From Mollicutes bacterium (GTDB lineage Bacteria > Bacillota_I > Bacilli_A > RF39 > UBA660): a stretch of DNA of 62,277 nucleotides. This document shows, one piece after another, positions 2,906-16,419 of the stretch. Both the position numbers and the translations under genes were made by a program. The notes beneath the pieces are model-generated. The model was not told where the DNA came from. It saw only the letters and a program-made list of their open reading frames with translations, and did not search any database. Where the stretch lies: positions 1-62,277 of the forward strand of contig JAAZKW010000028.1 in NCBI GenBank assembly GCA_012799635.1. Direction: 5' to 3'. Position 1 is the first letter of the stretch, and every line of letters starts with the position of its first letter.

Positions 2906-4654
2906 TTATATTCTTTCTCTTGTATAATGATTTGATAAGTCTTCAACAGTAATTCCTCTTATCTTTGCTTCTTTTTTATCAGATTCATATTGAGCATAAA
3001 ATTTAATTAATTCAATTACACGATATTCCATAACCCTCACCGAAGCCATTGCTATTATTTCCAGCATTTCTTCTTCGGTTGTATAAATAGGAATTTTTAT
3101 CTCTTCAGGTTTTATTTTTCTTAATCTTTCTATTTCCCTTTGATGTTGTCTTTTTCTTAATATTTCATATTTTTCTTTTTCCATATCTCCCATAGAATTC
3201 ATCGCTATCATATTTTCAATATCTTCTGGAGTTGTAGGTAAAGAGCCATCTACCAATCCACTTGACATTCCCCCAATTTTTCTTATCTTCTCTTCAAGCA
3301 CTAATTTTTTTGAATATAATACAAAAACATCTTCCATAAATTTTATAATTTCTTTTTCTAATGAAAGCATTTCTTCTTCTTTAAAAATAATACTTTCTTT
3401 TACTTGCTGGATATACTTTTCTATTTTATCTAAATCATCAAATGGAATATTAGTTATACTAAGAATATCATAAATTGATGAATTAAGATACCAGTTAATT
3501 ATCGTAGTATATAATTTTGATAATATATACTCTAATTCAACATTTAAATCTAATATTTCCTCACGTTTAAATATACACCACTTATTTAATGATGCTCTTT
3601 TTTTATAAACACTTTTTAATTGTTCTAAATCATTGTTACTAATTTTATCACTATGCTTTTCAAAAAAATCAATATGACTAGTTATATCTTCAATATCAAA
3701 TAAGTATTTGTTCTTTGACTGATTTTCCCTAATTTCACTATAAGATAATCGCTCTTTACTTTTTCCAGCTAATTTTGAAAGCTTTGATAAAGTAAATTCA
3801 CTCTCAAACTCATCTTTAGCTTTTTGAAATTCTTCAACAAATTCATCAATAATTATTATTTTTATCTCATAAGGGTTTATAACTTCATTCTTATCTTCAT
3901 CATAATAAGGACTACTTTTAATCTTATTTATTAAAATTTTAGGTAATGAACCTTTTATTATTAAAGGATATTTAGGCTCACATAATGAAGCATACTGTTG
4001 TAATAACGTTAGCATTTGATCTAATTTTTCAGGATTATTAGAAGCCACCCCCAACATTTTATCTTCATTTGAAGGTAAATACTCTAAAGATGCTTCTAAT
4101 ATCATAGCTAAATCATCTTTATCTTTAATTTGAGATAATAAATAATCCCTTAACTCACAAGATTTACTAAATTCTATCCTTAATTTCTGTCTAGTTATAT
4201 CTTCTAATTGTTTTCTAATTAATGCTAATATCCCATAATTAATATCAGTATACCTATTTATTTTACTTTCTATCTCTTTACTTTCAGACTCAGCTTCCTT
4301 TAATTTTAATCTAAATAACTCATCATCTGCTTGTTTTTCTTCTAATAAAAGTTTTTGAATCTTACAATTTAATTCATTAAGTTTTAAATCTCTATGTTCT
4401 TCAAGTTCTAAATCAGACATTGTCTGAATCCTCATATATTCCATAAGATTAACATATTTTTTTAACATTCTTCGAGCATATTTTGCCTCACGTAATTTAT
4501 ATTTTTCATATAAATAAAAACTATAATTTTCTTCATTTAATTTATCTTGATAATATTTAATAGTTTTACTAGCTTGCTTAATTTCACTTTCTTGTGCATC
4601 AATCAAGCTTTCTATATAATTTGGTTTAGTTTGTTCATCAACGATTACATTCAT
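2906..4654 (-). CDS. Hypothetical coiled-coil protein with a C-terminal internal repeat
   Basis: 582-aa ORF with RBS AGGAAGGA; E/K/L-rich helical composition; no family recognised. Confidence 0.7.
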   Translation of the reverse strand: MNVIVDEQTKPNYIESLIDAQESEIKQASKTIKYYQDKLNEENYSFYLYEKYKLREAKYARRMLKKYVNLMEYMRIQTMSDLELEEHRDLKLNELNCKIQKLLLEEKQADDELFRLKLKEAESESKEIESKINRYTDINYGILALIRKQLEDITRQKLRIEFSKSCELRDYLLSQIKDKDDLAMILEASLEYLPSNEDKMLGVASNNPEKLDQMLTLLQQYASLCEPKYPLIIKGSLPKILINKIKSSPYYDEDKNEVINPYEIKIIIIDEFVEEFQKAKDEFESEFTLSKLSKLAGKSKERLSYSEIRENQSKNKYLFDIEDITSHIDFFEKHSDKISNNDLEQLKSVYKKRASLNKWCIFKREEILDLNVELEYILSKLYTTIINWYLNSSIYDILSITNIPFDDLDKIEKYIQQVKESIIFKEEEMLSLEKEIIKFMEDVFVLYSKKLVLEEKIRKIGGMSSGLVDGSLPTTPEDIENMIAMNSMGDMEKEKYEILRKRQHQREIERLRKIKPEEIKIPIYTTEEEMLEIIAMASVRVMEYRVIELIKFYAQYESDKKEAKIRGITVEDLSNHYTRERI

Positions 4655-4740: not shown

Positions 4741-4766
4741 AAAAAAAGAGTGACTTTATCACTCTT
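4741..4766 (-). terminator. Intrinsic terminator closing the T7SS cluster
   Basis: AAGAGTGA-cttta-TCACTCTT hairpin, followed by a T-run on the minus strand. Confidence 0.7.
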
Positions 4767-5838
4767 ACTTTGTTCCTATTTGATTAATCAATATATTTAA
4801 TTTATTCTTAAAGCTTTTCTCCTCTTCATCTTTAAATCCATAGGCAATCACTTCTTCAACATCTTCATTATCAAACAAACATGTCTTATCTGCTGCCATA
4901 TATCCTTCTGGATAAAAGCATCCTGAATAATCATATACTTTTCCACTTTCTTCTTTAGATATTGAACAAAAACCCATTACCATAACTTTCTTATCAATAT
5001 TTTTTAATTTTACAATTGAACCAATTGGTAAAAAGTTATCTTTAATATCTTCAATTGTATCAAGCATATCTTTCGTAGCAGATCCAATTCCCATTCCCGC
5101 GATAGCTGCTCCAGCAGTTCCTATTGTAAGATTTTCAACGCCTTTAGAACCTGATGCAATTAAATCATTAATAGAAGTTAATCCTGAGTTAGATGCTCCA
5201 ACAGACATTCCTGGAATAGTAGAAGATACCACATTAGCCTTTGGCGTAATAACATCACCGCCTCCTACAATACTACTAACTGATTCATCAGTATTAACAA
5301 GTTGAGGTGGAGCAGTTTCAAATGAATACTGTGGTGTTACTGGTGGTAGTGGTTCTGAATATTTACCCACTGGCTGTGGTTTAGCAGCAGGAGCTGCTGC
5401 TGATAATCCTAGACCTGTAAGAATAATTTCTTCTGGCCCAACATTTGTAATTGTAATATCTGGTACAGTAGGTTTTTCTTTATCTGGTTCTTTTAATGGA
5501 CCCTCTATTCGATTTGTTGGTCCTGACACACCAGATGATCTTGATGAGCTAGCATATTTTGCACCTTCAATTTCGGCATTTTTATATTTTAAACCAACGT
5601 TCTGATAATTATTTTCAATTTTATTTATTTCATCATAATAGTCCAAATAATTTGCTTTTATATTATCCATCCATTTCATTGTAGATGTTTCTAACAAACC
5701 ATGTTGCTCAAAATAACCTCTTAATTTAAAATAAAATGTGTGAAATTTAGCTTTAGTTCGAGAAATATCATTATTGGCATCTCTTAAATAACCTTTTAAT
5801 GTGTTTAAATCATCATAATCAACATGAACTAAATTCAT
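4765..5838 (-). CDS. T7SS-associated fusion: WXG100-like helical N-terminus, Pro/Ser/Gly linker, C-terminal DUF4176 domain
   Basis: C-terminal FLPIGSIVKLK...VMVMG...YDYSGCFYPEG...LFDNEDVEEV..GFKDEEE matches the DUF4176 pattern; N-terminus VHVDYDDL...YKNAE resembles WXG100-superfamily proteins. Confidence 0.75.
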   Translation of the reverse strand: MNLVHVDYDDLNTLKGYLRDANNDISRTKAKFHTFYFKLRGYFEQHGLLETSTMKWMDNIKANYLDYYDEINKIENNYQNVGLKYKNAEIEGAKYASSSRSSGVSGPTNRIEGPLKEPDKEKPTVPDITITNVGPEEIILTGLGLSAAAPAAKPQPVGKYSEPLPPVTPQYSFETAPPQLVNTDESVSSIVGGGDVITPKANVVSSTIPGMSVGASNSGLTSINDLIASGSKGVENLTIGTAGAAIAGMGIGSATKDMLDTIEDIKDNFLPIGSIVKLKNIDKKVMVMGFCSISKEESGKVYDYSGCFYPEGYMAADKTCLFDNEDVEEVIAYGFKDEEEKSFKNKLNILINQIGTK

Positions 5839-5871
5839 TATTTCCTCCTTTCTAGTCTTGTCAAAACTTTA

Positions 5872-6540
5872 TTACTTTCCTTTAAAACTTTCAATACTTA
5901 ATATTAAATTTTCAAGATTTTTAATATGTAAAGTCATAGCCTTTATTCTATTAATGTTTTTATAAATTGAGGCTAATTCTTTTTTATCATGAATAGATTC
6001 TCCACCATTATTACACTTTAAATTATATCTGTAAAAACAATGTCCTTTAATTTTACAAAGATGTTCTCTTGTAAATGAATAAGTTTTATAATATTTTGTT
6101 TCCTCCCCTTCTTTAATACTACTTTTATTTTTATTATTTGCAACTATATTATAGTTTCTCAAAGATAAAACTACTTTCATTACTCGATTATCATATTCAT
6201 TATAAACTTTTTTAACTAATTCATTCGCCTCTTTTTCCATATGTGATACACAATCTCTTTTTATCATGGATGGCAATTGTTCCGTTATATTAGTAAAATC
6301 ACTATCAATTCTATTATTCAAAGAAATAATCCTTTCTCGCAAAGTTGCGGAACTATCATTTCCACTATAAGCATCTGAAGCAATTGAGATTGCCCTTGTC
6401 AAACTCTTTTTTATTTGAGCGGTATAACTTAAATATTCCTTTGCTTGATTCATAAATTCAGTTATTTCACTTTCTTTCATAAAACAAGTTGGAGGATTAC
6501 TTGCTGCAGCAGTATAATCCACACTAAGACACTTGGCCAT
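5872..6540 (-). CDS. Hypothetical protein in the T7SS cluster (possible substrate)
   Basis: Strong RBS (AAGGAGGA), lies between WXG100-like genes, helical N-half with DAYSG turn, Cys/His-containing C-half. Confidence 0.55.
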   Translation of the reverse strand: MAKCLSVDYTAAASNPPTCFMKESEITEFMNQAKEYLSYTAQIKKSLTRAISIASDAYSGNDSSATLRERIISLNNRIDSDFTNITEQLPSMIKRDCVSHMEKEANELVKKVYNEYDNRVMKVVLSLRNYNIVANNKNKSSIKEGEETKYYKTYSFTREHLCKIKGHCFYRYNLKCNNGGESIHDKKELASIYKNINRIKAMTLHIKNLENLILSIESFKGK

Positions 6541-6577
6541 AACACATTCCTCCTTTTTACATTATCTAATGTATTAT

Positions 6578-6630
6578 AAATGAAAGAATAGTTTCTTTCA
6601 TTTACAATACACTACATCTTTGTAGTGTAT
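6578..6630 (-). terminator. Two adjacent hairpins downstream of the WXG100 pair (terminator or mRNA stabiliser)
   Basis: AAATGAAAGAA-tagt-TTCTTTCATTT and ATACACTACA-tctt-TGTAGTGTAT inverted repeats. Confidence 0.5.
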
Positions 6631-6637
6631 ATAATAA

Positions 6638-6907
6638 TTAAACTTCCTCTACGCCAGCATATTCAAAAGCAGCTTTTTCAACTATAGCTGTTTGATGTGC
6701 GAAACTGGCAAGTATTGGTCCAAAATCTTTTGCAAAATCAACCCACTTTCTTTTAAAATCCGTTGCACTTTGCCCCATCCAAACTTTTGGATTGTCTACA
6801 TTTTCTTCTACCAACTTGTTCATTTCATTAAATATTTTAGTTAATTCAACTTGCTGTTCATCCATTTTTGTCCTGGCAGCACTAATAGCTAAATGATCTA
6901 AAGCCAT
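6638..6907 (-). CDS. WXG100 (ESAT-6/EsxA-like) protein
   Basis: 89 aa, central VWMGQSA WxG motif, C-terminal YAGVE (YxxxE) motif, downstream of essC. Confidence 0.85.
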   Translation of the reverse strand: MALDHLAISAARTKMDEQQVELTKIFNEMNKLVEENVDNPKVWMGQSATDFKRKWVDFAKDFGPILASFAHQTAIVEKAAFEYAGVEEV

Positions 6908-6945
6908 TATTTATCCCTCCTTTTAACAACAATATAACCCTCTTA

Positions 6946-7254
6946 TTAGACGTTCATAAATCTATTAATATTTTCTTCAGCTTGCTTATAATTATCTGCT
7001 TGTATATCAGATCTTTTACCAAATTTTTCTGCCATTGCACTCAACTCATCCATTTGTTTAGAAAGCGAGGTATACATAGATAAAAAATTGTTTAATACAC
7101 GCATAGCTTCTTGGTCATTGTCTACCCAATTAGCCTTAACCTTATTCACTTCATCAGATATTAACTTATGTGCCTTTCTTGCATCGTCAATGTTTTTAAG
7201 CATACGACTAGAAAATATACGCATTTCCTCTTTTTGATAATTTGTAACTTGCAT
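6946..7254 (-). CDS. WXG100-like protein (WxD variant)
   Basis: About 100 aa helix-turn-helix with central NWVDND and C-terminal YKQAE (YxxxE). Start moved to ATG 7254 behind GGAGGTG. Confidence 0.75.
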   Translation of the reverse strand: MQVTNYQKEEMRIFSSRMLKNIDDARKAHKLISDEVNKVKANWVDNDQEAMRVLNNFLSMYTSLSKQMDELSAMAEKFGKRSDIQADNYKQAEENINRFMNV

Positions 7255-7384
7255 TATTTCACCTCCCATTATATTTAAGAATATTAATCTAAGTTCTGTT
7301 GAACTATATCCTTATGATTTCATTTTATACTAAAAATAAATAAAAAGCAATGAAATTGAGTGTTTTTATACATGGATTTTACTT

Positions 7385-7639
7385 TTACATTAATATTAGT
7401 CTTGATCCATTCATAATTCGATTTTCTTTTATAGTATTATTTGGATCATATGGAAGTCCTGTATAACCATCTACTAAAACAAGTTCATTGTTAATAGGAA
7501 AACAACCTGTAGATAAATCATTAATAGCTTTATTTAATAAAAATATTATTTCAATTGTTTTTTTATTTACTGGTAAGAAAACATTAAATTTTTCCTCTAA
7601 AGATGGAACTATAATATCAACATTTATTTTATTTTTCAT
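7385..7639 (-). CDS. esaB: EsaB/YukD-like ubiquitin-fold T7SS protein
   Basis: 84 aa ending TIKENRIMNGSRLILM (YukD-type IxNGxxLxL); overlaps the essC stop codon. Confidence 0.75.
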   Translation of the reverse strand: MKNKINVDIIVPSLEEKFNVFLPVNKKTIEIIFLLNKAINDLSTGCFPINNELVLVDGYTGLPYDPNNTIKENRIMNGSRLILM

Positions 7640-10600
7640 AATAACTCTTCCTCTTCTCCATATTTTTCTATATATTTAAATAAGATATTCTTATTTGATA
7701 ATACATAATAAGCAAAATTATATGGTAAATTATTTTCAATATTTCTTGTAGAATATATTCTAAATAAAGATTGATCTGCAAGTCCATCACCAATCCAAAT
7801 ACCTTTTGATGGATTTATAATATCTTTATACCAACTATCATATTCAAACTTTTTAAGATTATCAGCAGAATCTACTATTACATAACTAATCTTACCTAAT
7901 TTTTTAGAATCAATCATCGGCGAAGATACTAATGATTCAAAATTATCATTAAGTATTGTCTTTATTTTATTAATACCTACTATTACAAATACCATATCAG
8001 CATATTTATCAAGCACTGAAGCATCATAACCATTATTTACATATTCTTCATTTAATTTAGCAACATTCTCCTTAAATGACTCAAAAACAGGTTCAAAAGA
8101 AGAGTTAAAATAATTAGTATGTTTTATATTATCAACTATCTTTTCAGCATCAATAACAAATACTTGAGTATTTTTTATTGTTGTAAATTGATAAACTAAG
8201 GAACTAATAAATCTTTTAGCATCTTTAATTTTTTGACATGAAACCATTAAAGAAAGATCATTTTTAAGATCATAAGTTAAAATATTAAGATCATCTTTAG
8301 CAACCCCTATTGGAATACTTGAAAGTCCATCTAAAGCACTTGCTACAAATGTTGTTGATACTACATCTGGAAGTGTTGGAATACTTAAAGCTCTTTTGGT
8401 ATATGTTTGATTTAAATTACTAATTGCTGTTTTTACTACTTCGGCAATATTATCATCTTCAGCAATACTTCCAGTTTGAAATTCAAATATACCTTCTCTT
8501 TTAACCATTCCTCTTCCTAAAACTTTACTTGGTAAAACATCAGTTTTACCTAAAATAGCACGATAATCATATTCATCATTCATTTGTAATAATATTTTTT
8601 CATTAAAGTTTTGTGTTATCTTAATACGCATATTATTTATTGCACTTACACTTACTACAAAGATAATACCATATTTTTGTCCTTCTCTTGTTAAAAGACT
8701 AAACTCATCCATATCATCATCATAAAGTTCATTAAATGATTCAAAACCATTTACAATAATTATATCAGTTGGAACAGTACTTCCACTGTTAGCACAATAA
8801 TAATCATAACTTCCATTATAATCAGCAAATAATTTCTTACGATCTTCAATCTTATATTGTAAGAACAAAAATAATGATTTTATTTTATCTATCTCACTTG
8901 AAGCAACAATACCTCCTACCTGAGGAGCCTTACTATACATTTTCATAAGTCCTGAACCAAAATCTAAAATATATAAGTTTAATTCTTCTGGAGTATATGT
9001 TGTAATAAGAGAATATACTAAAGAAGAAAGCGTTACTTCTTTACCAGAACCAACAGAACCATAAATAATAGTATTACCCATTTTAGATAATGGCATTGTT
9101 AAAATATTTTGTCTTTGTTCTTTTGGAACATCATACTCTCCAATTACAGGATTTATTTCAAATGGTTTCTTATTATACTTATATTTTATCTTCAATTTAT
9201 CAATATATATTATTGCAGGAATTGGATCAAGCCATAACTTTTCAATATTAATATTTTCTTGTCTTCCAACAGATTTAATATATTCTAAAATATTAGTTAT
9301 TTCTTCACCCTTATGAACTCCACGATCATCATGAGACTCATTATCTATTTGTTTAACAATTGATCCTACATTATCAACAAAATTAATGGAAGTATCCACT
9401 ATTTTCTTTAACTTCTCCGATTCATAATATGCTGCCCCACACCAAGCAGACTGTCCTTTAGCAAAAAAATCATTAAATCCTACTTGCAAGTAAAACCTAC
9501 CTGTCTCTTTAATATAAGCAGCATCTGGAGATTTAATCATATCATGACTATCTGATTTATCTTGAACTTTTAAACATACTCTAAACTTAGAGTTAGACCA
9601 TATTTGGTCATCTACTACGCCACTTGGCTTTTGAGTAGCTAAAATTAAATGCACTCCTAAAGATCTACCTATACGAGCTGTAGAAATAAGTTCATCCATA
9701 AAATCAGGTTGATCTGCTTTTAATTCTGCAAATTCATCTGAGATAATCATTAAATGAGATATCGGTTCTTTTACTCTTCCTTCTCTATAAAGTTTTTGAT
9801 ATTTATATATATCTATTGTACTTTCATTACAATCATCTCTTGCTTTATTAAACATTCTTTGTCTTCGTTTAAGTTCACTTTGAAGCGAAGATAAACTCCT
9901 ATTAATTTCATTTGTATCTAAGTTAGTAATAGTACCTGCAAGATGAGGAAGTTTTTCTCCGGTATCTTTATTTTCAAAAGCTCCAGCAAGTCCTCCACCT
10001 TTATAGTCTATTAAAACAAATTGTACTTCCTTAGGATCATAATTTACTGCCATTGATAATATATAAGTAATAATAAACTCTGATTTACCAGAACCTGTCA
10101 TACCAGCAATAAGTCCATGAGGACCATGAACTTTTTCATGTAAATCAAGTTTAAATAACTCACCATTTTCATCAATTCCTACGGGACATGATAAAGAAGT
10201 CGTTGGATCATTAGTCTTCCATCTATTATAAGCATTTAATTGTTCTACATTACCTGCATTATACATCTCCATAAAGGTATAAATAGTAGGTAATTCAAAA
10301 AAACCACCCTTTATTTCAATTGCAATATTAGATACCACAAAGATATAAGCATCAATCGTTGTCTGAATATATTCACATTTAAACTCTTGTATCTTATTTA
10401 TCTCTTCTTTAACAAATCTTTCTCCTGTTTCCGATGTTATATTAACAAAAGCCTGACACTGGGTTGGAAGTTTATTAATTCTTTCTGTTAAATAAAGTAA
10501 AGAAAAACCATGATTATCTTTATTTTCTAAAATACTATGAGTAATACTTATTTTACTTGCTATATCAAGACTATCAATAATTATCAAATAATTTTCTTCA

Positions 10601-12255
10601 TAATAATCTTCTTTTCTAAACTCTTCAATACCATATTCGGTCTCAACAGTAGATCTTTCTCGATATATTTCATCTAAATATGAAGAAAGTCTTGAAGCTT
10701 CATCTTGATTTGAAGCAAAAAACCTTACTTGTTTATCATTACTCCAACAATAAGGACTATTCTTAAGCTTACTCCAATAAGGTTCATTTCTCTTATTAGT
10801 AATAATAACTATTTTTAATTCATCATAAGATTGAAAAGCAATTAACTGTAATATAATCCCATCCATAAATCTTTTTAGATTAACCATATTACCTATAAAT
10901 CCATTAATAAATGATTTTCTTAAAGAAATATTAAATGGTACATCAATCAGTTTATTACTATTGTTTACAAGATCTTGTACTTCTTGTTTAAGATTATCTT
11001 CATCTAAACTAAACTGCTCTTTAGGAGCATTAATTACTATATCAGGATCAATATTACCTATTCCAAGTCTAACTGACATAAAATCATTATGTTCTGGTCT
11101 TCTTTCCCATAGATTCCTAGATTTTTGAAGTATAATATTACCAACTACTTCTAAAGTAGGACTATTAATCTTCAAAATACTCTTTTGATTTTCACACTCC
11201 GATTTAATATCATTACCAACTTTAACTAAATATTCATGATATTTTTTTTGTCTTAATTTTTCTAATTTTTTCCTTCGGTAATTTTGATAAGCTCTATTTA
11301 AACTAGGAAAAACAAGCATTGCAATAAGAAAAGTAAGTGCCGTAATAATTGAAGTCATATTTTCTTTAAAAGTTGTTTCTTTTCTTAAAACACCAACTAA
11401 AGCAATAATACCCGAAATTGAAGAACCCATTCCCATTACTAACATCGGGCCTAAAGTTAAAATCGCAGGAATATTTTGATCTGTCTGCTTCGAAGGAGGG
11501 GCATCAATATTTATGGTTTTCGTTTCAATAATTTGACTAAACCTAGGAGGTCTTATAAAATAATCTTTTTCTTCATATAAAACTTCATTTGATTCAGGAA
11601 AATCAGTATTAGTAAAATCAAGCTTATTTGGTTTATGAACTTCAAATTTCTTAGTAACATATTTTACTTTATCATCAACAGTTCCTAAAAGAAGTTTATT
11701 TCCAACAAAAGAAAAAGTAAGGCCTTCGATAAAGATAGCATCCCCATATGATACTGTCGCTTCGGTTACAAGACGATTATTAATATATAAATTAGCATTA
11801 TTATGTAAATTTTTAATATAATATAAACCATTTTTTCTTACAACTTCTAATTGATTATAAAACAAATTAGGATGTTCATATGAAATATAATTGATTTCTC
11901 CTCTTTGTTTATTCGCAGAATTTCCAATATAAAAAGTAAGCTCATCTTTTTCAACAAAATCAAGCATTAGCATTCTACTATCAAATGTTTCCCCAACAAA
12001 AACACGATAAGTTTCTTTAGTAGCATTTTCATAAAAATTATAAAAATGGTTCTGTTTTAACTCAGTAAACTCAATAATATTATTATTCTCAACTATTTTA
12101 ACATCATCATTGCTTTTAATAGTCCATTTACCATCTACACCACTAATGTTAATCAAGTTTTGATTTTGTTCATTAGTTATCCAATAATTACCGTATACTC
12201 TTGGTGGTAATATTAAATTAACTACTCGAGATTTCCCAATTAACTTAACCTTCAC
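7636..12255 (-). CDS. essC: Type VII secretion ATPase EssC (FHA-like N-terminus, TM hairpin, FtsK/SpoIIIE domains)
   Basis: [68 protein letters not shown]; D2 Walker A [8 protein letters not shown]; D3 degenerate; GTG start. Confidence 0.95.
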   Translation of the reverse strand: [1539 protein letters not shown]

Positions 12256-12512: not shown

Positions 12513-13115
12513 ATGGCAAGATATACTGGTCCTACATATAAAAAATCTAGAAGATATGGCTTTTCAACATTAGAAACGGGAAAAGAACTAGCTAAAAAAC
12601 CATATCCACCTGGAGTTCATGGTAAAAGTCGTCGTAGAAAATTATCTGAATACGGTGTTCAATTACAAGAAAAACAAAAATGTAGAACATTATATGGACT
12701 AACAGAAAAACAATTTAGAAAAGTTTTTGAAAAAGCTTCTAAAATGAAAGGTATTGCTGGTGATAATTTATTTATTTTACTTGAAAGTAGAATTGATAAT
12801 TTAATTTATCGCATGGGAATGGCTAGAACTAGAAGAAGCGCAAGACAAATTGTTAATCATGGTCACATATTAGTAAATGATATTAAAGTAGATATTCCAT
12901 CATATACTTGTAAGCCTGGTGATATTATATCTGTTAAAGAAAATAGTAAAAATCATCCTGCAATTGTTGATGCTTTAGAACTTAAATTATCTACTCCAAA
13001 ATTTGTAGAATTTGATGCAAAAAAACTATCTGGTAAATATATTAGAACACCAGATAGATCTGAACTTAATCCCGATATTAATGAACAACTTATTGTTGAA
13101 TATTACAGCAGATAA
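12513..13115 (+). CDS. rpsD: 30S ribosomal protein S4
   Basis: MARYTGP, SEYGVQLQEKQK, LESRIDN, INEQLIVEYYSR. Confidence 0.98.
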   Translation: MARYTGPTYKKSRRYGFSTLETGKELAKKPYPPGVHGKSRRRKLSEYGVQLQEKQKCRTLYGLTEKQFRKVFEKASKMKGIAGDNLFILLESRIDNLIYRMGMARTRRSARQIVNHGHILVNDIKVDIPSYTCKPGDIISVKENSKNHPAIVDALELKLSTPKFVEFDAKKLSGKYIRTPDRSELNPDINEQLIVEYYSR

Positions 13116-13151: not shown

Positions 13152-13382
13152 TTAATTTTCGTTTTCTATATTATTTTCTTTTTTATTGATAACACTATTA
13201 TCATCAACACTAACATCTTCTTCGTTTAAATATATTCTTAAAGCATCATTATAATTACTAACTTTATTCCATATTTCTTTTAAATGATAAGATTTTATAC
13301 ATATTTCTTTATAAATATCTAATGCGTCATTAATACCTTTGTTTTTTAAATCATAAACTTTTAACATATTCTTCTTTACCAT
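13152..13382 (-). CDS. Small hypothetical ORF overlapping the end of the large island gene
   Basis: 76-aa ORF with an AAGG RBS-like element; may be a gene fragment. Confidence 0.35.
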   Translation of the reverse strand: MVKKNMLKVYDLKNKGINDALDIYKEICIKSYHLKEIWNKVSNYNDALRIYLNEEDVSVDDNSVINKKENNIENEN

Positions 13383-16300
13383 CCTTCGTTTGTAATCGCT
13401 CTATTTCATCTTTAACAATATTCTGGAATTGTATAAGATGCCTAAAATCTCCCTTTTCTTTTTTCCTTTTTTCTATTTCAATAGTCAATTCTTTTAATAA
13501 AACAGTTAAATGATTATATTTTATAGTATTATCATTAATATTCTTAATACCTTCAATTACTATTTCAAACATTTTTTTGAACCCTTTTGCATTAAAATAT
13601 TTATTATATTCTAAATTACCATCATTATAATCATGACAACCAATAATATTATTAAAATACGTTATTATTAACAAAGATAAATATGAAGGATCTTTCGTTT
13701 GTAATAGCTGTTCATATATTAAATAACATTTATCCATCTCTTTTTTAGCAAAATACAATCTATCTACTATAACAATTGGTAAATTCATATCTTTTGCTGC
13801 TTGAAGTGATTGTTCATAATAATATACACATCTAATTTTATGTGTATCTTCTTTACTTATCTTATGTTCTATTAACATTTCATATACAAAATACGCATCA
13901 TTTGCTTCTTTTAACAATTTTATAACATCCTTGCTTATATTTTTTACTTCAAATTCCTTAATTAATTCTTTCCTAGTCATAAAATTATATTTATTATTTA
14001 TATCATCTATTATGTATATTATATATGAAGGCATCCTTTTTAAAATCTTTCCGTCTTCATACTTCATTCTTTCAATTAAAACTTCATTATGTGTATGTCT
14101 AGTATTATTGATTAGTTCCGAAGGTGTTGAAAAAGCAAAATCTATATTTCTAGAAATATCATAATAATGTTTAAACCAATTGGAATTTGCATCGGTATCT
14201 GTAGACATTAATAATTCCTTTCCATTTAAATTATTGAAACCCAAAATAGGGTAGAATACTCTAGCAGTAGCTATTTGATTATTTCCTATGTAACTACAAG
14301 AGATTCCATGTAAATAAAGTTCTGGCCTATTCCAATCATCTAAAAAGCTGCCTTTTCTTGAATAATCACTATATGCTCCTAAAACATGGATTAATAAATT
14401 AAAATCATCTTTTAAAAGGAATATTTTACTTTGATTATTATTAATACTTCTTAGTCTACCTAAAATTTTTGGATCACCGATTAAACCTTCATTATTATCT
14501 AATTTTTCATCATCTGTTATATAATATAAAGTACTATCATAGAGTTTGGCATATTCATTTCTTAGATAGACTTCTAAATATAGATAATTATTAAAGCTTG
14601 GTAACATCATATCACTAGCACTAAACATAAACATTAATTCTTCAATATCATTACAATTAACAATATCATAAATATCAAACAATATAAGTTTAACGTTCTC
14701 ATCTATTTGTAAATTTAATACAAGATTTTTATCTTTAAAATATCGATTTAATATAAAAAGTGATTCCTTTAAATCAAAACCATATTTTTTTAATAAGAGC
14801 ATATTTTTTAAATTACTAATGTCTTGCGCCTCTTTAATCCTTAATTCATATTGTTTATATTTTTTGGTGATAATTCCTAAAAAATTGTTATCTTTTAAGT
14901 CTTCAATATTTTGAATCCCAAAAAAATTATGGGCTTTTTGTAATATATATATATAATTTATTAATTGCTCATCAGTTACATTTTCACTATTATTAATAAT
15001 TCCTTTATAATATAAAAAATGATTTATCACATTATACGATATTGATGAAGTATCATATGGCATTGTATCAATTATTTTTAACATTCTATTTAATAATAGT
15101 AATTCTCCATTAGTTAAGCTGACTACTTTATACTGCAACTTTGGAGATGTACATATTTTATGAAAATATTTTGAAGAAAAAATATTCATACGGGTTTCTA
15201 ACATTAAAGGATTTAAATAAGAAAGAAGTTCAGAGTCAATTAAAACTAAAGATTCTATTTTTTCTTTTATTTGATATGGATCAATAGCTAAAAAATGAGC
15301 GTATAAAGCTGTAAATTTTTCTACAGGTGTTTTTTCAGGAATTCTATTACGTTTACTATAATTTACAATTTTATTACAAAAATTTTCTAAATTATTATAA
15401 TAACAAATATCCTTAAACAAACCTGAATACAAAAGATTATCTGGTAAGATAAACTCTTTTTTATTTGCCATCCAATCAAACAATTCCTTTTGTTCTTCTT
15501 TAGAAGAATGACATTCAATAAGCGAGGGGTTAAGACGACACACTATATCATACCTTTTTAAATTCATAGCAAGTCTAAAAAATTTCTCGTTATACCATAA
15601 TTTTTCTAGCCATTCATCAGGAAGTTTATCAAATATTTCCAAGATCATTTGCAATGTTTCATCCGTATATGCTTTTTCTTTAAACTTAGTAACTAGATCA
15701 TATCTTTTAAATTCTATTGCTTTTTTTAAAAGTTTATCATTACCGGTTAACCTAGGTGAAGTTTTATATAGGTCCAAAGAAAAAAATGTAACACTAATTG
15801 TTCTCACAATATAATCACCATATTTCTCAACTATATAATCTTCAACGGTTTCGTCACAAATACTAATTAAATCATATCTAAATGACTTTACTAATATTTC
15901 AGAAAACTTTTCAATTTTTTCTACGCTTGCAAATTGAAAGTCCATTCTAAAAGGAACTTTTTATAGATTTTCTGCAATTTCATAACCATATTCTTCTATT
16001 ATTTCATCATTAAATGCATCAAAATAGAAAATACCTAAAAAGAAATATAAACCATTATTTAATATCTTTTTTAAAAATCTTGCACTATATCTTAAATTTT
16101 CTGGTATTGTTATGCCAAGTTTAATGACTTGTTCCATTAATTCATCGGTAAAAGTGTCCTCTTTAGCAAGGTCTAAAACAACATATATTCCATTATCCAA
16201 TGCTATTTTTAAAAAGTTAATGTCATTAATAGCTTTATCATATTTACTAAGTAATTCTTTTCTGCAATAAAAAGGAATTCCTGATAACTCGTATTGATGA

Positions 16301-16419
16301 CAAGTTTCAACTGCTGCAATATAATTGCCAACATCTACATAATCAAAAACTAGATGCCATTTTTTATGCTTTTCATCACTTTCTTGCTGTAATTTTTTAT
16401 AATCTATCTCTTTTTCCAC
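13351..16419 (-). pseudogene. About 1020-aa hypothetical protein split by one in-frame TAA (15961-15963); C-terminal domain with ART-like motifs
   Basis: ORFs 15961-16419 and 13351-15945 are in the same frame and read EIAENL*KVPFRMDFQ; motifs LLIHVLG, GISCSY, HNEVLIER. Confidence 0.7.

Follow-up and report, generated by a model that had tools for sequence, protein, structure and literature searches.

A reduced type VII secretion locus in uncultured low-G+C Bacilli and its possible relationship to T7SSe-type systems

In type VIIb secretion systems (T7SSb), EssB, EsaA and EssA belong to the conserved core according to PMC12637312; in the 2025 structure of the Bacillus subtilis core, as presented in the same paper, YueB and YueC are missing and no stable hexamer is seen. 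A 2024 survey of type VII secretion systems (T7SSs) by Garrett, Higginson and Palmer (PMC11217815) named T7SSe, a subtype in which the ATPase TseC comes before TseB and a TseA/TseA2 pair and which also includes the membrane Ser/Thr kinase TseD, the PPM phosphatase TseF, TseJ (DUF6382 and FHA), the large Ig-like protein TseI, secreted and anchored, and the single-helix proteins TseH and TseK. The FHA domain of TseC there has a conserved motif for phosphothreonine binding. T7SSj is presented there as similar, T7SSe of Neobacillus as accompanied by a "reverse" lipase toxin, and all subtypes, except perhaps T7SSg, have extra membrane parts as far as that text describes them. The survey searched RefSeq, and "metagenom" does not occur in its main text. 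Within the literature searched, the names T7SSe, T7SSf, T7SSg and T7SSj were found only in this survey, and no paper was found on reduced loci in uncultured Bacilli of the kind analyzed here; the supplementary locus lists of the survey may hold similar ones.

Here we analyze a T7SS locus on a contig of 62,277 nucleotides (JAAZKW010000028.1, in the following the window) from a Mollicutes bacterium. The window is contig C6 of an assembly (GCA_012799635.1) of 1.15 Mb in 61 contigs that is 88.65% complete, has about 26% G+C and is read with translation table 11. Six intact open reading frames (ORFs) lie head to tail between positions 12255 and 4765, within a single bounded block on the minus strand (4746-12255): essC, a gene for an EsaB/YukD/TseB-like ubiquitin-fold protein, two WXG100-like genes, a gene for a candidate polymorphic substrate and a WXG-like/DUF4176 fusion gene. 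On balance, we favor the reading that this locus is a reduced relative of the kinase- and FHA-associated T7SSe-type systems of Bacillota, which has kept only near-universal type VII parts. With the same reserve, we consider the kept set to be the EssC/TseC ATPase, TseB/EsaB, the non-identical WXG100 pair and a cargo module consisting of a toxin-like protein and a DUF4176 chaperone domain. We infer that this set suffices for secretion and that the present state arose by loss.

The first gene of the block (7636-12255, minus strand) encodes a TseC-like membrane ATPase of 1539 amino acids (aa), which, judged by its sequence, is a genuine EssC. Its match to the NCBIfam model TIGR03928 reaches 993.4 bits (cut-off 778.4), it has two FtsK_SpoIIIE stretches (Pfam, 4.7e-50), and its Walker A motif (G718 to K724) and residues D840/E841 are invariant across 16 aligned EssCs. 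Two hydrophobic helices, at about residues 272 and 301, are the only ones encoded in the block. The N-terminus carries two FHA-like domains with a degenerate phosphothreonine motif; the Pfam FHA match, at 18.9 bits, lies under the cut-off, and the region aligns to canonical FHA domains of related EssCs. The window EssC is 37-62% identical to the EssCs of 79 loci from public genomes; its identity to T7SSe-like EssCs from Clostridia, Paenibacillaceae and Neobacillus is 37-40%, as against 27% to a canonical T7SSb EssC.

One hundred loci of this EssC group were compared; 20 neighborhoods were taken from relatives and 79 from public genome records, and three of the 100 are duplicates. The public loci come mostly from uncultured low-GC Bacilli, including Candidatus Coprovivens and Ca. 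Onthousia, but also from metagenome-assembled genomes (MAGs) of Clostridia, a Paenibacillaceae MAG and Neobacillus niacini. Twelve of the loci are full and have 34-50% G+C (L077, L082, L083, L089, L100, L108, L110, L112, L116, L117, L118 and L120): essC is followed by a YukD-like gene and two WXG genes, and then by extra genes, namely a gene for a DUF6382+FHA protein, one or two for PP2C phosphatases, one for an FHA protein, genes for small single-helix zinc-ribbon proteins, and a gene for either a membrane Ser/Thr kinase or an N-terminally anchored protein of about 780 aa. In the N. niacini locus, a lipase-like Mbeg1 gene follows tseB. These full loci appear to be T7SSe, an assignment made by matching their gene content to the published description and not by reference sequences. 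Two further candidates were rejected as full loci: what matches the large-protein profile in L069 is a Big_2/CHAP wall hydrolase, and the kinase match in L097 is a soluble protein of 222 aa.

The full and reduced loci also differ in EssC itself. The second FHA domain has the full G-R..S..H..N-G-T motif in 10 of the 12 full loci and in none of the 86 reduced rows of the alignment; the motif arginine alone is present in 11 of 12 and in 2 of 86, respectively. In the window EssC, the motif columns read G-N..F..Q..A-N-L, and many other reduced EssCs keep S, H, G or T in varied combinations. We infer from the aligned columns that the pattern in reduced loci probably reflects repeated decay after loss of the phospho-switch. 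That kinase module and EssC pocket were lost together would then be comparative evidence that the FHA of T7SSe EssC is the receiver of that kinase, which the 2024 survey, in the text that treats it, raised only as a possibility (PMC11217815).

In trees built with FastTree (99 EssCs) and IQ-TREE (52 EssCs), a single clade with support 100 unites the 12 full loci. The window EssC belongs to a well-supported group with its genus, among the 86 low-GC reduced-locus rows, and is set well away from the T7SSb EssC of the control genome G038, which belongs to another family and contributes locus L043.

The partners expected of a T7SSb system, namely the membrane pseudokinase EssB/YukC, the large polytopic protein EsaA/YueB and the small membrane protein EssA/YueC, were searched for in 61 genomes, the window's own and 60 relatives, 37 of the 61 belonging to its family. 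In this sample, essC scored past the cut-off in 16 genomes: nine of the 22 from the genus, six of the 15 from the remaining genera of the family, and G038. The EssB model TIGR03926 and the EsaA model TIGR03929 had no match in the window's genome. PF10140 (YukC/EssB) passed its cut-off in one of the 61 genomes, namely in G038 directly upstream of essC, and in none of the 37 family genomes. The EsaA N-terminal model found, among the relatives, the gene beside essC in G038 and, within the family, only YhgE/Pip-like ORFs unlinked to essC (G029 and G034). Thus, neither EssB nor EsaA was found in the 15 essC-bearing genomes among the 37 sampled in the family. For EssA, model TIGR03927 gave in the window's genome only a match of 13.9 bits inside a 382-aa ORF on another contig, and PF10661 gave weak matches in larger ORFs of seven family genomes, with or without essC, and missed the EssA of G038 itself. 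When EssB, EsaA, EssA and EsaB of G038 were used as queries, no homolog was found among the 1803 proteins of the 100 loci, large-genome members included.

Since the same searches recover EssB and EsaA beside essC of G038, the method is sound, and the absence of these two applies to the family within the limits of the sample. And since no homolog of any of the four G038 proteins was found in the 100 loci, large genomes included, the absence of EssB and EsaA, and probably of EssA, is a property of the whole subtype and not a result of small-genome reduction. The initial annotation, which had described a minimal type VIIb locus without EssA, EssB or EsaA and had suggested a stripped-down subtype of small-genome Bacilli, is borne out for EssB and EsaA, of which no homolog turned up elsewhere in the genome or in the essC-bearing genomes of its family. 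For EssA, it agrees with the lack of homologs of the G038 protein in the 100 loci, while the profile searches in the genome and family leave weak matches, and the Pfam model overlooks the EssA of G038. The locus is indeed stripped down, but the lack of the three proteins is not specific to small genomes, and the type VIIb frame is not supported by the EssC identities and trees.

A related explanation is that a T7SSb system lost EssA, EssB and EsaA during genome reduction. The window EssC does pass the NCBIfam model for T7SSb EssC, an EsaB-like gene and DUF4176 are present, and an FHA without the phosphothreonine motif is reported for T7SSb EssC in the survey's description (PMC11217815). We nevertheless regard this explanation as very improbable: the EssC is closer to T7SSe-like proteins than to the T7SSb control, the gene order is that of T7SSe-like loci and not that of G038, and proteins of the G038 EssB, EsaA, EssA and EsaB type are missing from every locus of the group.

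The equipment that distinguishes T7SSe was likewise sought in the window's genome. Neither the T7SSe kinase nor the phosphatase is encoded at the locus. DUF6382 (PF19909) has no match in this genome or in any of the 37 family genomes, while the positive control succeeded in three of three genomes with full loci, and the only FHA match in the genome is EssC itself. The genome's only PP2C phosphatase and only membrane kinase form a PASTA PrkC/PrpC pair, a housekeeping pair whose genes adjoin a radical-SAM gene (contig C19). A profile of the family of about 780 aa built from eight full loci (the TseI candidate) found no match in the genome; the profiles of the other full-locus families, including TseJ, had none either, and the small-protein profile matched only a zinc-ribbon protein of a mobile element. 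In these comparisons, the families of about 780 aa and of small single-helix proteins are equated with TseI, TseH and TseK by the description in the survey, not by sequence comparison, and un-iterated profiles were used, as iterated FHA, DUF6382-FHA and zinc-ribbon profiles drifted onto the FHA region of EssC. The zinc-ribbon protein, of 180 aa with a single helix (contig C22, 10314-10856; L133), is encoded beside a serine recombinase and a helix-turn-helix gene, and a soluble Ser/Thr-kinase-like protein of 256 aa (contig C42, 7026-7796; L134) beside an integrase fragment; both look like mobile-element cargo. A wall-less host, in which an envelope conduit would be unnecessary, is ruled out by peptidoglycan genes of the same genome: MraY (302.5 bits), two transpeptidase penicillin-binding proteins and the PASTA-domain kinase.

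The second gene of the block (7385-7639, minus strand), which overlaps the essC stop by 4 nt, encodes a protein of 84 aa. Its AlphaFold2 model, computed with 43 relatives, is a ubiquitin fold with a predicted local distance difference test (pLDDT) value of 95.3, and what it resembles most in Foldseek, with template modeling scores of 0.79-0.81, is the ubiquitin-like domain of EccD5 from the ESX-5 T7SS. The window protein itself has no Pfam match, while among the 43 family members aligned, 12 do match Pfam YukD (E <= 0.01); a profile of the family against PDB sequences returned nothing (best E 0.58), whereas the fold search did return matches. The TseB-like family occurs in 96 of the 100 loci. 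A model of the complex of EssC residues 1-250 with the 84-aa protein scored 0.84, compared with 0.00 for the best of three controls; the mark applied is attained by 58 of 80 solved complexes and, among 110 mismatched pairs, by two. Agreement between the runs extends to at least 61% of contacts, the pLDDT of the partner is at least 88, and the predicted interface involves EssC residues 169-189 and 209-217. The pass may reflect likeness only, because a like complex, B. subtilis YukB-YukD, has already been solved (PMC12637312); there, as the paper describes it, YukD touches YukB at its FHA and DUF domains and enables recruitment of YukC.

The next two genes encode the WXG pair. The first protein, of 107 aa (6946-7269, minus strand), has weak Pfam matches (WXG100, E 0.0049; WXG100_2, E 0.0026) and no clear WxG motif visible, and it matches with E 1.5e-6 a profile of 140 WXG-like proteins from related loci that does not contain it. 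The second, of 89 aa (6638-6907, minus strand), has a W-M-G motif in the sequence KVWMGQSA, matches TIGR03930 weakly (E 0.0068) and clusters with the 140 WXG-like proteins; as a member of that profile, it scores well there by construction.

The 222-aa protein encoded downstream (5872-6540, minus strand) resembles over residues 1-131 the residues 1-133 of a 570-aa protein encoded at the same position in the closest relative, G001 (31% identity, E 2e-14). It thus combines a conserved N-terminal domain (about 135 aa) with a variable C-terminus unrelated to that of its counterpart in G001. It matches no Pfam, NCBIfam or PHROGs family above noise and has no LXG match, and an Atlas look-up gave no usable match. 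We consider it a candidate polymorphic-toxin-like protein, in architecture only. In a DNA run of a related strain from another biogas metagenome (X7), essC and the flanks are covered at about 99% identity, and low depth and joints (for example, from 5587 to 6505, with a side of 73) are seen over the 222-aa and WXG genes at about 5458-7254; this pattern suggests strain-level replacement of the cargo module. The last gene (4765-5838, minus strand) encodes 357 aa with DUF4176 at residues 269-343 (Pfam, E 5.6e-26), an N-terminus that weakly resembles WXG proteins over residues 6-99 (E 0.0066 with the locus WXG profile) and a low-complexity Ser/Gly/Pro/Ala linker between them. DUF4176 proteins are described as chaperones that stabilize LXG toxins (PMC12482557).

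Several points weigh against the reading of the locus as a reduced T7SSe relative. The first is the tree. Rooted with G038, a single outgroup on a long branch (2.35-2.55), the clade of full loci is nested inside the reduced ones, which, read literally, favors gain of the kinase module over its loss. The minimal layout might accordingly be ancestral in this EssC group, the T7SSe-like loci of larger genomes having gained kinase, phosphatase, FHA and envelope genes later, and one gain would be more parsimonious than many losses. By the approximately unbiased (AU) test, a root that separates the full from the reduced group is not rejected (delta log-likelihood 3.66, p 0.446), so that the tree alone does not settle the direction of change. 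Since reduced EssCs retain an FHA region with a variously degraded motif, which looks like repeated decay of a working pocket, and since actinobacterial T7SSd, as described in the survey, shares the kinase, TsdH and TsdI with T7SSe (PMC11217815), suggesting an old module, we consider an ancestral minimal state rather unlikely.

The second group of points concerns the envelope. With the assembly in 61 contigs and 88.65% complete, the missing part could contain a partner; sequence profiles are blind to non-homologous or very divergent partners, and detection is difficult for small proteins with a single helix (TseH, TseK and EssA, for example). The host makes peptidoglycan, so its cargo must cross a wall without a recognizable conduit. 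The machine might therefore not be minimal at all, one or more membrane partners being encoded elsewhere and not homologous at the sequence level to known T7SS components; the core status of EssB, EsaA and EssA in T7SSb and the extra membrane parts of nearly all surveyed subtypes speak for this, as do lineage-specific helix-bearing proteins at some loci of the genus. Four of these loci encode a family of about 820-870 aa (818-868 aa: L026, 3823-6965; L029, 12904-15699; L031, 3963-6959; L032, 4021-6976) with hydrophobic helices at about residues 150-250, situated between two WXG pairs. It is preceded in three of the four loci by a protein of 146-170 aa belonging to one family, and in L029 by a non-clustering protein of 106 aa. 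Neither the large family nor the preceding proteins have a Pfam match or occur in the window; they could be membrane-active toxins or lineage-specific components. A family of 350-430 aa with a single helix, encoded upstream of essC in L026, L027, L029 and L032, was rejected as a divergent EssB, as it has no Pfam match, its helix is near the N-terminus, and it is absent from the window and limited to 4 of 81 loci.

Against a hidden partner, no helix-bearing family is found in more than four of the 81 distinct reduced loci, 38 of which have none in the co-directional block, and the upstream neighbors of essC are unrelated housekeeping genes that vary by locus (rpsD and the genes for AlaRS, SufB, SSB, DnaD and Veg). 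Genomes of 0.8-1.3 Mb leave little room for one, and the profile searches of the genome yielded no candidate. We therefore regard a hidden membrane partner as unlikely.

The remaining points concern the state of the genes. Within the family, essC is patchy (15 of 37 genomes), and in G001 (L035, 7318-11949) one TAA splits it into ORFs of 810 and 729 aa, which could be a pseudogene or a sequencing error. These observations and the loss of accessory genes would suit a decaying remnant without secretion function. Against it stand the six intact ORFs, the invariant ATPase motifs and the pattern of selection: the ratio of non-synonymous to synonymous substitution rates (dN/dS) lies at 0.04-0.22 in all 10 close pairs of essC and at 0.04-0.27 in all nine of the ubiquitin-like gene (tseB), demonstrating purifying selection on both genes. 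Moreover, five family genomes of about 1-1.3 Mb (G003, G009, G018, G025 and G029) keep two full-length essC loci each, every locus with its own ubiquitin-like gene. The window stretch occurs in biogas-fermenter metagenomes, and contigs from two metatranscriptome libraries of two studies match it without differences over the WXG pair, essC, the 222-aa gene and the DUF4176 gene, one contig of 652 nt (6647-7298) spanning both WXG genes. RNA libraries can contain DNA and such contigs are silent on strand and level, and locus parts without RNA-contig cover carry no evidential weight. Taken together, this makes a functionless remnant highly improbable.

The boundaries of the block agree with the initial annotation, which had listed the same six genes, essC first and esaB after it, in a fully bounded locus with a terminator at 4741. 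The gene list is confirmed, with the reservation that the WXG100 matches in public libraries are weak. Upstream, rpsD is divergent (12513-13115, plus strand; 282.7 bits on NF003717). At the other end, a terminator-like hairpin (4746-4766, minus strand) fits the predicted terminator: its stem has nine pairs, three of them GC, its tail reads TTTTTTAT, and a T run comes after it; five terminator-like sites were found in the region versus 2.3 expected. The gaps between the genes of the block contain no ORF of at least 20 aa on the coding strand, and a promoter scan was uninformative (70 sites versus 76.7 expected).

Three ORFs of 152, 864 and 76 aa (13152-16419, minus strand), flanked by rpsD and a conserved transporter gene, form a block that is absent from the syntenic site of G001 (L035), an insertion adjoining the T7SS locus. 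None of the three matches a Pfam, NCBIfam, PADLOC or PHROGs family, except for an 18.9-bit PHROG match of the 76-aa ORF. Just downstream of the terminator, a gene on the minus strand (2906-4654) encodes a highly charged, coiled-coil-looking protein of 582 aa; it has its own promoter-like site (4720-4692, 11 of 12 matches), matches no family and is not conserved in G001. These four genes were rejected as hidden EsaA, EssA or EssB, as their products have no hydrophobic helix and no family in the four libraries. Seven short contigs of the assembly (C7, C13, C17, C44, C52, C55 and C60; 1.5-4.3 kb) have 39-61% G+C compared with about 26% elsewhere and are probably binning contaminants.

If the locus is a reduced T7SSe-type system, its action could be pictured as follows. 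EssC would oligomerize in the membrane, the two helices of each subunit forming the channel, and TseB would dock on the FHA region and stabilize the assembly in the manner of B. subtilis YukD on YukB. Export of the WXG100 pair, an obligatory co-substrate, would license that of the 222-aa protein, kept stable until then by the DUF4176 domain. The phospho-switch of T7SSe (kinase, phosphatase and DUF6382-FHA adaptor) and the envelope-spanning protein would have been dispensed with, and the FHA pocket of EssC would have decayed along with them.

A bolder proposal, which we offer only tentatively and consider possible rather than probable, is that EssC with its ubiquitin-like clamp is a self-sufficient translocase, used in dozens of uncultured wall-bearing Bacilli of about 1 Mb without any dedicated accessory membrane subunit, conduit or phospho-switch. 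If true, this would define a natural minimal core of the whole T7SS superfamily. The locus also bears on how substrates pass the membrane and the wall in Bacillota T7SS. Selection has retained only EssC, the ubiquitin-like protein and WXG proteins in about 80 loci, sometimes twice in a 1-Mb genome, which offers a natural answer as to which core is indispensable and a small construct for reconstitution and cryo-electron microscopy.

In comparison with the known systems, T7SSg (Acetivibrio, Paenibacillus), as described in PMC11217815, is similarly simple, with two WXG100 proteins, a ubiquitin-like protein and an ATPase, but its TsgC has no FHA, it has the beta-propeller protein TsgL, and Tad pilus genes adjoin it; by this description, the window locus is set apart from it. 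With T7SSb (Staphylococcus aureus Ess and B. subtilis Yuk/Yue), the window shares an FHA-bearing EssC that passes the NCBIfam model, a ubiquitin-like partner predicted to dock on the FHA region, WXG100 and DUF4176 proteins and an FHA without a phosphothreonine pocket; it differs in having no detected EssB or EsaA, two WXG100 genes instead of one, essC first instead of last and an EssC only 27% identical. The T7SSb order in G038 is esxA-esaA-essA-esaB-essB-essC, whereas that of the window is T7SSe-like. With T7SSe, it shares an EssC of about 1530 aa with N-terminal FHA domains at 37-40% identity, essC directly before a YukD-like gene and two non-identical WXG100 genes, nearby DUF4176 and polymorphic cargo, and the lack of EssB and EsaA and apparently of EssA. 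It differs from T7SSe in that the TseD kinase, the TseF phosphatase, TseJ and recognizable TseI and TseH/TseK are found neither at the locus nor in the genome, in the loss of the FHA phosphothreonine motif, and in its hosts, which are uncultured low-GC Bacilli of about 1 Mb represented by metagenomes only.

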